From Escherichia phage ECp13, in the sequence record PP274704.1: DNA of 64,000 nucleotides; one strand, 5' to 3'. The first letter of the stretch is position 1; the number at the start of each line of letters is the position of its first letter. Of this stretch, positions 8,162-60,602 are shown piece after piece. A program made the position numbers and the translations under genes. The notes beneath the pieces are model-generated. The model searched no databases. It was not told the DNA's origin and was given only the letters and a program-made list of their open reading frames with translations.

Positions 8162-8905
<744 letters not shown>

Positions 8906-8929
8906 ATCAAAATTAATTAGGAAAATAAA

Positions 8930-9187
8930 ATGAAAACTTTCAAAGAGTTTGCTACAAAAACCACTATCACTGAATCTTCTCACGGTATGGAAGTAAAGCT
9001 TGGAATGGCTTTAGCTGAAGCTGAGCGTCTTTTCTCTCGTATTAAAGAACTTGCTGCTGCAGTCGATCCTTCATCTTTTAAAGGAGACCAAACTAAAGTT
9101 AAAGCACTTTTAGCATTATGCTCCGATGCAGGAGAAATTGCTAAAAATGGTTCTAAGATGAAGAAACGATTAGAAGATTTAAAATAA
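8930..9187 (+). CDS. internal protein (IP) with capsid targeting sequence, ipI locus
   Basis: 85 aa; N-terminus MKTFKEFATKTTITE resembles the T4 IP targeting sequence MKTYQEF..; position after 57B. Confidence 0.65.
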   Translation: MKTFKEFATKTTITESSHGMEVKLGMALAEAERLFSRIKELAAAVDPSSFKGDQTKVKALLALCSDAGEIAKNGSKMKKRLEDLK

Positions 9188-9235
9188 TTTCACAAAGTTG
9201 TTTACATAGGGTTTTAGTTGTGATACTATTACCCT
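9176..9235 (+). repeat. direct repeat copy B (early promoter cassette)
   Basis: Near-identical to 8846-8905. Confidence 0.75.
9200..9229 (+). promoter_or_regulatory. early promoter
   Basis: -35 GTTTACA, 17-bp spacer, -10 TACTAT. Confidence 0.65.
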
Positions 9236-9257
9236 ATCAACTACCGAGGAGAATAAA

Positions 9258-10636: not shown

Positions 10637-10721
10637 GAATTATTTGTTATTATTAACTCATATCGCACTGATTAATACCCTCTATCATCAAGGGTTCTTG
10701 TTTGAGAGCCTTTGTTAATAA

Positions 10722-10781
10722 TTTTGGTAGAGCGCCTGATTTGGGATCAGGAGGTCCAAGGTTCAAATCCTTGTATGGAGA
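10722..10781 (+). tRNA. tRNA-Pro-like fragment (anticodon UGG), 5' part not foldable
   Basis: Perfect anticodon arm CCTGA/TTTGGGA/TCAGG and T-arm CAAGG/TTCAAAT/CCTTG, but no D-stem or acceptor 5' strand upstream. Confidence 0.3.
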
Positions 10782-10783
10782 CT

Positions 10784-10883
10784 GGAGGCGTGGCAGAGTG
10801 GTTTAATGCACCGGTCTTGAAAACCGGCAGTCGCTCCGGCGACTCATACTAGGTCGTAGGTTCGATCCCTACTGCCTCGACCA
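10784..10883 (+). tRNA. tRNA-Ser-like (anticodon UGA) with encoded CCA, atypically long variable region
   Basis: Acceptor GGAGGCG, anticodon arm CCGGT/CTTGAAA/ACCGG, T-arm GTAGG/TTCGATC/CCTAC, 3' ACCA; about 10 extra nt before T-stem. Confidence 0.45.
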
Positions 10884-11195
10884 AACAAGAAACCGGGTCG
10901 CTACCGGTAAGTCGTCGGACTGATGTTCCCTGGAGTATAGTTCCTCCCACAGTTTTACTGTGTTCTGGTTCTTTACTATCACAGCTGAAACGGCGCACCG
11001 AATTATCGATTCGAGGAAATATCTTTGCCGTAAGCCGAGTAGCGTTTTTGACGGAACGTTCGGATATGGTCGAGATATGGCCTTTTAAAAATATTGAGTA
11101 GCGTCAACTGCTTAATAACCGGGTTCGAATCCCGGCGTTTCGTACAAACACTTGCCTTAGCAGGTGGAACCCCGACAAGGTTGCCGCAAGGCTTA
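10884..11195 (+). ncRNA. structured non-coding region of the tRNA cluster (possible small stable RNAs)
   Basis: No ORF; multiple hairpins; tRNA-like T-arm CCGGG/TTCGAAT/CCCGG at 11119-11135 with a pairing acceptor stem; T4 encodes small stable RNAs here. Confidence 0.25.
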
Positions 11196-11222
11196 GCCCC
11201 GACCGAAAGGTTGGGGCTTTTT
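11196..11222 (+). terminator. intrinsic terminator hairpin
   Basis: CCCCGACC-GAAA-GGTTGGGG followed by CTTTTT. Confidence 0.6.
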
Positions 11223-11224
11223 AG

Positions 11225-11232
11225 TATAAATA
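11225..11232 (+). promoter_or_regulatory. late promoter TATAAATA
   Basis: Exact TATAAATA 40 bp upstream of the IP-like gene at 11273. Confidence 0.55.
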
Positions 11233-11272
11233 TAGTAGTATATTAAATCCACGAATTAAAACAGGAAATAAG

Positions 11273-11746
11273 ATGAAATCATATGCTCAATTTTTAAATG
11301 AAGCGGTGTTAAATGAAGCATCTAGCACCGAAATTCAAGCCGTCGCAAAAGCAGCCATTGCAGCGGGTAAATATTCCTATAAAGATGCTTCTGACGAATC
11401 ACGATTCCAATTTGCTCGCGACATGAAAGCAGAAGGATTTACGGGAAATGCGGTTAGTATGGCCTGGAAAAGTCTAGTTGCTACTGGCGCTGCTTTTGCA
11501 AAGGCTTCGGGTAAACCTGCTCCTAAAGCAGATCCTAAAGCTGCACAAGAAAAAAATATCGTTAAAGGAATTATCGCTAAATATGAAGCTATCCTTAAAG
11601 AGCTTTTAGTAATCAAAACCGAAGGCCAAAAGTTAGCCCGTGCTTATAGTTTCAAAGATAATCCACATGTTCACTCTCTTGAGTATGTTGAAGACATTCA
11701 AAAAATTATTAAAGACCGCATTTGGTCTGCTAAACAAATCAAATAA
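11273..11746 (+). CDS. internal-protein-like protein with capsid targeting sequence
   Basis: 157 aa; N-terminus MKSYAQFLNEAVLNE; late promoter upstream; flanked by near-identical hairpins. Confidence 0.65.
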   Translation: MKSYAQFLNEAVLNEASSTEIQAVAKAAIAAGKYSYKDASDESRFQFARDMKAEGFTGNAVSMAWKSLVATGAAFAKASGKPAPKADPKAAQEKNIVKGIIAKYEAILKELLVIKTEGQKLARAYSFKDNPHVHSLEYVEDIQKIIKDRIWSAKQIK

Positions 11747-11754
11747 CATTCTTA

Positions 11755-11782
11755 ACCCCGACCAAAAGGTTGGGGCTTTTTG
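11755..11782 (+). terminator. intrinsic terminator hairpin (near-duplicate of 11196-11222)
   Basis: CCCCGACC-AAAA-GGTTGGGG followed by CTTTTT. Confidence 0.6.
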
Positions 11783-11914
11783 GTATCTAGGCCTTTCTGG
11801 ACCTCTCTAGGCATCATTTAGTTTATACCCTTTATAATATATTATCCTATCTTTTAATTGCCCCTCCCTGCCCTAGAATTCCCTAAAAATTTTTAAAAAT
11901 TTTTTCACAAAACT

Positions 11915-11944
11915 ATTTACATCCCTGTTCTTCCATGGTACTAT
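11915..11944 (+). promoter_or_regulatory. early promoter
   Basis: -35 ATTTACA, 17-bp spacer, -10 TACTAT; AT-rich upstream tract. Confidence 0.6.
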
Positions 11945-11988: not shown

Positions 11989-12252
11989 ATGGATAATTAC
12001 GGCGAACTGTTCAACTTCTTTATGAAATGCGTTTCAGAAGATTTCGGTCGTACAGTGAATGATATTAAAGTTATCGGTCCTGACCATCCGATGTTTGAAA
12101 CTTACGCAGTAATGGGTAATGAAGACGGACAGTGGTATACTGTAAAGGTTGTGATTAACATGTTCACAGCAGAAGGTTATGTTAAACTGTCTTCTAAAGT
12201 TTACCACGATAACGACGAAATCGCAGAAGAATATTTCAATAATATGAAATAA
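11989..12252 (+). CDS. hypothetical protein
   Basis: ATG at 11989 after RBS GGAGA; 87 aa; ORF-track start 11935 lies inside the promoter. Confidence 0.55.
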   Translation: MDNYGELFNFFMKCVSEDFGRTVNDIKVIGPDHPMFETYAVMGNEDGQWYTVKVVINMFTAEGYVKLSSKVYHDNDEIAEEYFNNMK

Positions 12253-12282: not shown

Positions 12283-12308
12283 GAGCCTACAATTTGAGGA
12301 AAACCGTT

Positions 12309-12839
12309 ATGTCTCTTTATACCGAACTGAATGAAACTTCCGAAAAATCTTTTGATGATATCTTATCAATAATGCAAAAACAGGTATTAGAACAGCTTAG
12401 TGAAGCCGCAAGCAATGGGCACAAGGCTTGTCGAGTCCAAAGCCCACATCGCCGCATGTATGAACGCCCTCTTATTAATTGGCTAGAAAGCGAAGGTCTT
12501 ACAGTTAAGATTTGCCCTGCTAAATTTGATGTCCCACGTATTCTTAATATTTACTGGGATAAACCGGCTGAGAAATCGGTTGAGAAAAGTGACCCTTGGG
12601 TTGTTAATGTAAAAACATGTGACAGTGGATGCTCACTTGAGGTGTCTGCTGTAATTAAAGGCACTCATGGTGAAAAATCATGGGGTTGGCCTAGTAAAGA
12701 TAAAGAAATCGTGTTAAGTGTAAAAGCTACTAGTATTAGTACTCCTATAGCTAAAAGCATTATCGCCGCCGCCGTTGAAGAAGCTGAACGAATTTGTAAA
12801 ATTAAAAATAGTTTACATCTCTTAAATAGTATGATATAA
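12309..12839 (+). CDS. hypothetical protein
   Basis: 176 aa from ATG at 12309. Confidence 0.55.
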   Translation: MSLYTELNETSEKSFDDILSIMQKQVLEQLSEAASNGHKACRVQSPHRRMYERPLINWLESEGLTVKICPAKFDVPRILNIYWDKPAEKSVEKSDPWVVNVKTCDSGCSLEVSAVIKGTHGEKSWGWPSKDKEIVLSVKATSISTPIAKSIIAAAVEEAERICKIKNSLHLLNSMI

Positions 12840-16348: not shown

Positions 16349-16765
16349 ATGACTCGTATTAATTTGACTTTAGTATCTGAACTTGCTGATCAACATTTAA
16401 TCGCAGAATACCGTGAACTGCCGCGTGTTTTTGGTATAGTTCGTAAACATGTTGCAAATGGTAAGCGGGTTAAAGATTTTAAAATATCTTCCGAGTTTAT
16501 TTTAGGTTCTGGTCATGTCACGTTCTTTTACGATAAGTTAGAATTTTTGCGAAAGCGTCAATCAGACATTATAACGGAATGCTTAAAACGTGGGTTCAGT
16601 ATAAAAGATACTGAAGTTCCTGACATCAGCGATATTCCAGCAGAATGGAAAAATGATTATAATCCATGCAAATCAGCTATTAAATTGAGCCAACAACGAC
16701 TCGATGAAAAAATTTTAATGAAGCCATACTGGTATAAATACTACGGTAAAACTATTTACATTTAA
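16349..16765 (+). CDS. denV: endonuclease V (pyrimidine dimer DNA glycosylase)
   Basis: 138 aa; [17 protein letters not shown]...YRELPRVFG clearly homologous to T4 endo V but diverged. Confidence 0.92.
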
Positions 16766-16774
16766 AGGAAACAC

Positions 16775-17248
16775 ATGAAAACATATCAAGAATTTATCAC
16801 TGAAGCAGCTATTAATTCTCAAATTATCGCTGAATCTTTTATTGATCTTTTGAAATTTAAAAAAGGTCAAAAAATCACTGCTGTATTGGATGATGGTACA
16901 GAAGTTGAGATGGATGTACAGGGATATAATTATGCAGTAGATGGAAAACTGTATAATAAATCTCATGCTAAATTTGATTCATTTGACGATTTTGTTAATA
17001 CAGTTGAAGATGAAAAAACTCGTAGATCCATTGCAACTGGCGACGCTAAGGTTCTTATGGCACATGGTCATGAACGTATCCGCGCGAAGCAGAATAAAAT
17101 GGGTGAAGATAATTTTGCATTAGTTGGTTATCAATCTGGTAAACAAACTTATGGTTATCAGCGTACTGCTACCATGTATAACAAAAATGGTAAAATCGCT
17201 TTCGTGAATAGCAAAGGTTCTATTCAGTACGTCAAATCATTCAAATAA
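16775..17248 (+). CDS. internal-protein-like protein with capsid targeting sequence
   Basis: 157 aa; N-terminus MKTYQEFITEAAINS matches the recalled T4 IP targeting sequence MKTYQEFIAEA. Confidence 0.65.
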   Translation: MKTYQEFITEAAINSQIIAESFIDLLKFKKGQKITAVLDDGTEVEMDVQGYNYAVDGKLYNKSHAKFDSFDDFVNTVEDEKTRRSIATGDAKVLMAHGHERIRAKQNKMGEDNFALVGYQSGKQTYGYQRTATMYNKNGKIAFVNSKGSIQYVKSFK

Positions 17249-60437: not shown

Positions 60438-60602
60438 ATGAAAACATATAAAGAATTTATTAAAGAAGATATGGTAGCTGGAGATTCAGGTGGTAATCCT
60501 GAAAATATCTCCACTGGAACAACGTCAGGTGCTGTAGTAAATAAAGGTCCTGAACAGATTCCTAAAAAGAAAAAAGAGGAATCTAAAGAAAAAGAAGAGT
60601 AA
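60438..60602 (+). CDS. small peptide with capsid-targeting-like N-terminus
   Basis: 54 aa hand-translated; MKTYKEFIKEDMVAG... then Gly/Ser-rich and KKKKEESKEKEE tail. Confidence 0.45.
   Translation: MKTYKEFIKEDMVAGDSGGNPENISTGTTSGAVVNKGPEQIPKKKKEESKEKEE

Follow-up and report, generated by a model that had tools for sequence, protein, structure and literature searches.

A candidate internal-protein gene between twin terminator hairpins in the rnaC/e.8 gap of Escherichia phage ECp13

Gene A and its flanking hairpins

We analyzed a stretch of 64,000 nucleotides from Escherichia phage ECp13 (PP274704.1; hereafter the window), a 64-kb Tequatrovirus (T4-like) segment whose + strand runs antiparallel to the T4 map. 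Across the window, gene 1 is followed by 57A/57B, the ipI locus, the tRNA region, e.8 to e.2, nudE, e, and denV. The subject of this study is a 157-aa open reading frame (ORF) between rnaC and e.8, here designated gene A. A first-pass annotation, made from the DNA alone, had described it as one of three internal-protein-like genes, as bracketed by two nearly identical terminator hairpins, as driven by a late promoter, and as adjoining the tRNA region. The ORF was found at the proposed position, and terminator hairpin, late-promoter motif, gene, and second terminator hairpin are all present, forming a self-contained flanked unit. Homologues of rnaD and rnaC and two tRNA-like genes lie upstream of it, and the rnaC homologue is the final gene of the tRNA/stable-RNA transcription unit. 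Downstream, the e.8 gene has its ATG at 11989, and the start of its product (MDNYGELF) matches T4 e.8. The features of the locus are as follows:

11006..11144, + strand: homologue of rnaC (species 1 RNA), near base-for-base alignment with T4 rnaD/rnaC (NC_000866 annotation), coordinates transferred by hand
11192..11227, + strand: repeat copy 1, terminator-like hairpin, stem-loop 11195-11218, T-run to 11222
11225-11232, + strand: T4 late-promoter motif TATAAATA, 3 nt past the T-run of hairpin 1 and 41 nt ahead of the ATG
11263..11266, + strand: Shine-Dalgarno motif AGGA, 6 nt ahead of the gene A ATG, read from the sequence
11273..11746 including the stop codon, + strand: gene A, 157-aa candidate internal protein, phrog_2280, start MKSYAQFLNEAVLNEA
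11273..11317, + strand: leader MKSYAQFLNE-AVLNE (capsid-targeting-like propeptide), L-x-E sites ending at residues 10 and 15
11751..11786, + strand: repeat copy 2, terminator-like hairpin, stem-loop 11756-11775, T-run to 11781
11916..11944, + strand: early promoter-like site (TTTACA-17-TACTAT) of e.8, right border of the slot

The window contains exactly two copies of the 26-mer CCCCGACC(G/A)AAAGGTTGGGGCTTTTT, both on the + strand (11197-11222 and 11756-11781) and within 1 nt of the coordinates first assigned, and 100 dinucleotide-preserving shuffles yielded 0 matches. The direct repeat grows to the 36 nt listed above, with an identity of 92% and a spacing of 559 nt, and the identity of the copies reaches non-structural flanks, namely CTTAG on the left and AGTATAAAT and AGTTTGAAT on the right. 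Copy 1 folds into a 10-bp stem with a GAAA loop (-20.3 kcal/mol, z -3.6), and copy 2 into an 8-bp stem (-15.1 kcal/mol, z -2.6). Four to five U follow directly after each stem, and both copies fit the predicted form of an intrinsic (factor-independent) terminator, i.e., a GC-rich stem-loop followed by a U-run. A terminator scan picked up both copies, and both hairpins had also been marked as terminators by independent annotators in the phages G28 and Lutter. From these structures, we infer that hairpin 1 ends the rnaC unit and that hairpin 2 ends the gene A transcript.

The motif TATAAATA, which lies directly after hairpin 1, is the sole promoter-like site between this hairpin and the gene A ATG, and a promoter scan of that interval detected no sigma-70-like site. 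Every Tequatrovirus locus examined has the motif at the same position, as do one Dhakavirus locus and the Jiaodavirus KpV477. The dN/dS values (ratios of nonsynonymous to synonymous substitution rates) of gene A were 0.06-0.18 in comparisons with seven orthologues, with dS values of up to 1.65; gene A is a real gene under strong purifying selection. Its family is tiny and restricted to T4-like phages: an indexed search of 5.8 billion proteins returned 14 relatives, unnamed or labelled ‘hypothetical’, and an exhaustive profile search of 1.8 billion clusters returned 13 representatives.

Gain and loss of the unit in related phages

The rnaC/e.8 slot was surveyed by junction-specific searches of 50,697 phage records. 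These queries replaced an earlier span-based survey with a long T4 query, which had been confounded by e.7 variation. Four states of the slot were found, i.e., empty, gene A, gene A followed by a second gene (gene B), and gene B alone:

Empty (contiguous empty site): 78 of 577 records with the flank
Gene A directly followed by the e.8 upstream region: 277 records
Gene A followed by gene B: 128 records
Any record with gene B: 165 records, hence about 37 with gene B alone

An occupied slot is the rule (about 85%), and T4 and T2 are the exception. In T4, T2, and the Yersinia phage PST, the site is empty, and a single hairpin separates rnaC from e.8. The left flank of the single T4 hairpin is the left flank of copy 1 of the window, and its right flank (GGTATCTA...) is the right flank of copy 2; therefore, the window has 559 extra bases, which comprise the late promoter, the gene, and the second terminator copy. 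The Shigella phage pSs-1 contains gene A, a second hairpin copy, the 187-aa gene B (MKTYAEFLTEAAKL...), and a third hairpin, which has a different stem (CCCTATC/GATAGGG) and the same T-run and right flank. Genes A and B with three hairpins were also found in SH-1 and in two IMG/VR contigs, and gene B alone is carried by RB69 and ESh27 (Mosigvirus). The AGTTTGAAT that comes after the hairpin ahead of gene B is a degraded version of the AGTATAAAT behind hairpin 1, and a stretch reaching from the ribosome-binding site into the leader is repeated between cassettes A and B of pSs-1 (42 nt, 76%). The related AGTATAAAT and AGTTTGAAT segments and this repeat show that the two cassettes are common at their 5’-ends and different in cargo. 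The flanked-cassette arrangement that had been proposed for gene A is supported by this allelic series, in which T4, T2, and PST are empty, pSs-1 has two cassettes, and RB69 and ESh27 have the second cassette only. The three internal-protein-like genes of the window are not all fixed in position across T-even phages; gene A is a presence/absence polymorphism.

Truncated or frameshifted slot genes were observed in several relatives (survey loci L002, 2670-2963; L008, 736-1298; L016, 2495-2731; and L023). Shortened copies are present in G28 (gene A of 97 aa), RB69 (gene B of 146 aa plus a second ORF), and KpV477 (78 aa). Such copies fit a dispensable gene, or sequencing errors. In phage 04086, the gene start is partly duplicated beside a run of N.

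After the tRNA/stable-RNA cluster, a terminator hairpin, (T/A)ATAAATA, and a leader-bearing gene follow in this order in Tequatro-, Mosig-, Dhaka-, and Jiaodavirus, with hairpin sequences that vary. Loci showing this order are those of the Mosigvirus phages JK36 and RPN187, the Dhakavirus phages EcoM_005, IME341, and 04086, and the Jiaodavirus KpV477. In the latter, a Klebsiella phage, the hairpin CCCTGTC-TTCG-GACGGGG is followed 10 nt on by TATAAATA, and the gene starts with MKFKEFLAEASS. The twin copies carry lineage variants: CCCCGACC is present in both copies in Tequatrovirus, and CCCCTTCC, which weakens the stem, in both copies in Mosigvirus.

In T4-like genomes (the window and the IMG/VR contigs), the 26-nt hairpin is confined to the rnaC/e.8 slot. 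Of six IMG/VR matches, four lie at this slot, and the remaining two are in contigs that are unrelated. The hairpin was also considered as the end of a dispersed cassette, which was rejected because the window has two copies only and the copies in T4-like IMG/VR contigs all lie at one slot. In the two unrelated contigs, the identical 26-nt hairpin and T-run have unlike flanks (L013, 8609-8634; L014, 5-30); one of the contigs is 251 kb long, and in the other, a second, similar hairpin precedes the match by 30 nt. The occurrence in these two contigs is probably a convergence on a strong terminator.

All breakpoints in the examined states map to the hairpin and its T-run (junction alignment of T4, the window, and pSs-1; also RB69, ESh27, and T2). 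These breakpoints point to a gain or loss of gene A through recombination between the repeated terminators. In this mechanism, the direct terminator copies (26-36 nt) would be substrates of the phage recombination system, and exchange between copies, or with the third hairpin behind gene B, would add or remove whole units and lead to the states empty, A, A plus B, and B. T4 deletes and duplicates segments via microhomologies of 6-10 bp (PMC9391042), and exchange between flanking regulatory repeats, excised circles included, has been shown experimentally for the PeSLs of RB49 and phi1 (PMC2839356).

The PeSL cassettes (PMC2839356; Comeau et al. 2014, PMC4122927) resemble the gene A unit in that a stem-loop/promoter composite stands on both sides of one non-essential gene, the copies flank indels, and a close relative lacking the gene retains one chimeric copy. 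The mechanism proposed for them is also exchange between the flanking copies, possibly via a small circle. However, the gene A unit is not a PeSL, because its late promoter follows the stem-loop and its repeat is local. Here, the stem-loop precedes the promoter, which is the late TATAAATA and not a sigma-70-like early promoter, and the repeat contains no sigma-70-like site. All copies of this repeat lie at one slot, with no scatter through hyperplastic regions, and excision as a circle, known for PeSLs, would be hypothetical here.

Leader, proposed packaging, and possible function of the gene A protein

Genetic analyses of T4 IPIII mapped head targeting to leader residues 4 and 7 and processing to residues 8 and 10, and the prohead protease gp21 cuts after L/I-x-E (PMC9026906). 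The leader of gene A has Y4, F7, L8, and E10, i.e., all four residues mapped for IPIII, and a second site at L13-N-E15. Application of the L/I-x-E rule to T4 IPI reproduced its known 76-aa mature form. The N-terminal pattern M-x-x-(Y/F)-x-x-F-(L/V) followed by L/I-x-E is kept in all members of the gene A family. It persists in members in which the mature part is only 38-43% identical, which have a different C-terminal domain, or which are matched by profile only, and in shorter variants with leader indels, one L-x-E is retained every time. The initial description of gene A as internal-protein-like is supported by this T4-type capsid-targeting leader, with a mature part distinct from IPI-III. 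Homology searches, which had been suggested for all three internal-protein-like products of the window, assigned gene A to the uncharacterized phrog_2280 and matched the other two to IpV and IpIV of PST.

The likeness to T4 IPI-III and the internal proteins of relatives extends to several further characters. Their leader of 10-15 residues carries an aromatic residue at position 4, Phe at position 7, and L/I-x-E at positions 8-10. They also have a late promoter (a predicted one in gene A) and a small, basic, lysine-rich mature part; they are dispensable, polymorphic in close relatives, and share nothing beyond the leader. Further members listed for T-even relatives are ‘Ip4-13’ and IpIV-VI (Repoila et al. 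1994 as quoted in PMC12373910; PST annotation KF208315). By contrast, the mature sequence of gene A belongs to a distinct family (phrog_2280), and packaging of its product is predicted. Gene A is flanked by terminator repeats and not by early-promoter repeats, and it lies between rnaC and e.8, outside both recognized Ip loci (ipI and ipII/ipIII); the literature counts two such loci (PMC12373910). Judged by its sequence, gene A appears to have every character of a T4 internal protein except the location. This difference is a matter of place, not of mechanism.

Genes A and B could be aligned over residues 1-11 only (BLASTP, hhalign). Likeness restricted to the leader is also the stated hallmark of Ip1-3 (PMC12373910). 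An origin of A and B as tandem paralogues was considered and rejected: both score on phrog_2280, yet only the 11-residue leader aligns, and homology of the mature parts is therefore unsupported. A resemblance of the gene B C-terminus to Klebsiella or Yersinia members was also dropped, as the similarity was not significant.

The predicted mature gene A protein has 142 aa, a mass of 15.5 kDa, and an isoelectric point (pI) of 9.6. It is basic and lysine-rich (pI 9.5 with 21 Lys versus 4 Arg in the full-length protein) and comparable to T4 IPI-III, which have pI values of 9.0-9.7. An AlphaFold model of moderate quality (pLDDT 73, pTM 0.45) is all-helical; behind a disordered leader come an N-domain of four helices, a Lys/Pro/Ala linker, and a helical hairpin at the C-terminus. 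Leader residues 1-15 are the sole stretch with a pLDDT below 50. The protein has no Pfam match.

We consider it likely that gene A is transcribed late as a monocistronic unit and encodes an internal (injected) protein of the T4 type, located at a third internal-protein slot, with gain and loss mediated by the hairpins. Within this combined reading, packaging is rated higher than the reading as a whole, and an anti-restriction role lower. In the proposed course of events, tRNA/stable-RNA transcription would stop at hairpin 1, and the gp55-type late promoter TATAAATA would start an mRNA of ~540 nt that stops at hairpin 2, so that late transcription would be kept out of the early e.8 unit. The leader MKSYAQFLNE would bring the protein into the prohead core, and gp21 would cut after LNE10 and/or LNE15. 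The resulting 15.5-kDa, basic, lysine-rich, all-helical protein would be injected with the DNA. This part of the course is derived from the exact agreement with the mapped IPIII determinants, and the protein is probably packed in the head and injected. By analogy, its job would most likely be to disarm a host defence acting on the incoming DNA. Ip1, Ip2, and Ip3 inhibit distinct GmrSD variants (PMC12373910), and Bas37_0260 inhibits McrBC (bioRxiv 10.1101/2025.11.20.689424); an anti-defence role is proposed because all characterized small leader-bearing internal proteins inhibit type IV restriction enzymes. Bas37_0260 is also a T-even accessory protein that was called internal by its N-terminal signal alone and has no homology to IPI-III. 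This newly recognized case demonstrates that a leader-bearing gene without annotation can be a genuine anti-restriction factor. It differs in that it is encoded at the ipI locus and its function was shown by a knockout; gene A is likened to it by description.

Several observations weigh against the combined reading. Gene A is present in 511 phage records, all of which label it ‘hypothetical protein’, and phrog_2280 is listed with unknown function in PHROGs. In the papers searched, we found no virion proteomics, N-terminal sequencing, or naming of the family, and the gene A leader is absent from the supplements of PMC12373910. Foldseek searches against PDB (IPI* included) and BFVD yielded nothing below E = 1 beyond the family itself; lacking structural neighbours, the model supports no particular function. 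The leader deviates from MKTYQEFIAE at positions 3, 5, 6, and 9. The motif TATAAATA occurs 12 times in the AT-rich window versus 10.9 expected, which is not above chance, and it is replaced by AATAAATA in Mosigvirus and the other two Dhakavirus loci. What gives it weight is where it lies and that relatives conserve it, not the motif alone, and late expression of gene A is predicted from the conserved copy 41 nt upstream. In Dhakavirus, an unrelated terminator lies behind gene A, and twin hairpins are therefore not universal. The lineage co-variation of the twin copies is seen in two lineages only. Lastly, hairpin 2 and the hairpin behind gene B overlap in just 9-10 nt (GGGCTTTTT), and a loss of gene B would therefore require exchange at the level of microhomology.

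Two alternatives concern the way in which gene A came and went. The likeness of the hairpins could reflect terminator selection or one old duplication, and the gene indels could stem from unrelated illegitimate events or from regional replacement in crosses. The different downstream terminator of the Dhakavirus gene A is in line with this explanation, as is the same 26-mer in two unrelated viral contigs, which makes convergence possible. Moreover, the slot would lie ~0.4-1 kb from the SegB homing site of T4-type tRNA regions (deduced from the SegB reference given in PMC4122927), and co-conversion could move a whole slot state from phage to phage. However, every examined breakpoint lies exactly within hairpin and T-run, and the empty site has just one copy, whose flanks are chimeric, as expected after exchange between direct repeats. 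The identity also continues past the stem-loop into the CTTAG, AGTATAAAT, and AGTTTGAAT flanks, and the copies share lineage-specific stem variants; because the shared Mosigvirus variants weaken the stem, selection for terminator strength is no explanation for them. Overall, hairpins without a role in the exchange appear rather unlikely to us. A strict mobile element, inserted by a nuclease or transposase and with the repeated hairpin as target-site duplication, would also present itself as a single gene bracketed by a direct repeat, with a clean empty site. Yet the 559-nt insert has neither a nuclease or transposase ORF nor inverted ends, and a ‘duplication’ of 31-36 nt that is itself a terminator far exceeds usual target duplications. 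In addition, the hairpin is at no other site in T4-like genomes, and its presence in one and the same slot in four genera speaks for the gene being a long-standing resident and not a jumper. We regard a mobile element as extremely improbable.

Two further alternatives concern the protein and not the mechanism of exchange. Gene A might encode an ordinary late protein that stays in the cytoplasm and does not enter the head. Its leader-like N-terminus would then be a passenger, inherited because new genes at such sites are joined by recombination to a promoter, ribosome-binding site, and leader segment that are already in place. A common descent of the 5’-end is plausible, because cassettes A and B share 5’ regulatory and leader DNA (42 nt at 76%). 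The absence of proteomic evidence from the papers searched and an early-region ORF at 60438-60602, which starts with MKTYKEFIKE and thus places the motif outside known head genes, also favor a passenger. On the other hand, selection has kept the leader in four genera, even as the mature part falls to 38-43% identity or less and the C-terminal domain changes. Leader indels always preserve L-x-E, the four mapped positions are all correct, and the predicted late timing, basic lysine-rich composition, and dispensability match packaged internal proteins; a passenger leader is improbable in our view. Alternatively, the protein could be packaged and structural, aiding DNA condensation or head assembly as reported for IPIII, and not act against a defence. 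The 21 lysines and a pI of 9.6 would suit such a role, since internal-protein lysines contact DNA phosphates in T4 heads (PMC3012670), and head assembly is slower in IPIII mutants (PMC9026906). The presence of gene A in most relatives (~85% of slots occupied), its strong purifying selection, and the lack of any sequence or fold similarity to known type IV restriction inhibitors in PDB, BFVD, and Pfam can be read in the same way. The known type IV inhibitors are, however, unrelated to each other, and missing fold similarity is therefore no argument against an inhibitor role. T4, T2, and PST are viable without gene A, the gene is frameshifted in several other phages, the four-state polymorphism is typical of arms-race accessory genes, and IPIII is itself a GmrSD inhibitor (PMC12373910). 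A structural role is possible and compatible with packaging; as a replacement for an anti-defence role, we judge it unlikely, although of the four alternatives it deserves the most weight.

Neighbouring genes and implications of a probable third slot

Two further internal-protein genes are present in the window:

8930..9187, + strand: IpV gene at the classical ipI locus, 100% identical to PST IpV
16775..17248, + strand: IpIV gene after denV, start MKTYQEFITEAAINS, 99% identical to PST IpIV, phrog_3155 ‘internal virion protein’, Pfam DUF7412

The latter is the third internal-protein-like gene of the first-pass annotation, and it is real. That annotation had also contrasted the T4 order e-ipIII-ipII-denV with e-denV-ip in the window, which agrees with the T4 annotation. 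The e-denV-ip order was found in about 164 of 655 related records and is a common alternative configuration. The identities to IpV and IpIV of PST and this gene order bear out that repertoire and placement of internal proteins differ from T4. The IpV gene is flanked by a 69-nt direct repeat (83%) at 8842-8910 and 9172-9240 (+ strand), which contains an early promoter (TTTACA-17-TACTAT) with an embedded stem of the PeSL type. The stem arms differ between the copies yet are complementary (GATGAG/CTCATC versus TAGGGT/ACCCTA), as in PeSL cassettes. The repeat begins in the last codons of 57B and IpV, both of which end with DLK. The IpIV gene has TATAAATA at 16733-16740, within the 3’-end of denV. 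No direct repeat flanks it and no obvious terminator hairpin follows directly, which sets it apart from gene A and the IpV gene.

Outside these loci, a 54-aa ORF at 60438-60602 (+ strand), the early-region ORF mentioned above, lies directly upstream of the primase gene 61, at the position of T4 61.1, and belongs to phrog_1823, of unknown function. Its residues Y4, F7, I8, and E10 fit the capsid-targeting pattern, and the remainder of the protein is acidic. At 10710-10880 (+ strand), ahead of the rnaD/rnaC homologues, Rfam detected two tRNA genes, and ARAGORN reported 0 in the window. T4 has eight tRNA genes and PST nine, both plus segB, and the near-identical relative ESh16 has nine. Because of the difference between two and eight or nine, the tRNA cluster of ECp13 appears strongly reduced, and it appears to lack segB. 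At 12294-12839 (+ strand), the window has a 181-aa ORF where T4 carries the 111-aa e.7. This position is variable in relatives, as RB69 has ORF146c, ORF145c, and frd.3, and PST and G28 have a 58-aa ORF.

The biology proposed for gene A follows established themes, and what is new is an unannotated candidate internal-protein family at a previously unlisted third slot. In the reference phages T4 and T2, the site is empty, so the gene is still called ‘hypothetical’, and the slot would have been missed for this reason. As a tentative extension, to which we give slightly less than even credence, the rnaC/e.8 gap may be the third internal-protein locus of T-even phages. The products of A (157 aa) and B (187 aa) may be injected inhibitors of defences without a known phage countermeasure, e.g., GmrSD variants that none of ip1-10 inhibited, and the terminator with its late promoter may be the late-gene counterpart of the PeSL, through which whole genes are swapped.

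Internal proteins are the earliest phage products to meet the host. Work from 2022 to 2025 established that each of Ip2, Ip3, and a new protein with such a leader specifically inhibits type IV restriction enzymes. The third slot would add two leader-bearing families, A in about 500 and B in 165 sequenced phages, and carriers include therapy candidates and members of the public BASEL collection (e.g., Bas39/FriedrichMiescher, bas39_0255). The slot genes could explain differences in host range among near-identical T4-like phages. The four-state series would be a natural example of short regulatory repeats that act as exchange points for single genes, and the slot may offer a ready-made, insulated site of late expression for loading foreign proteins into T4 heads.

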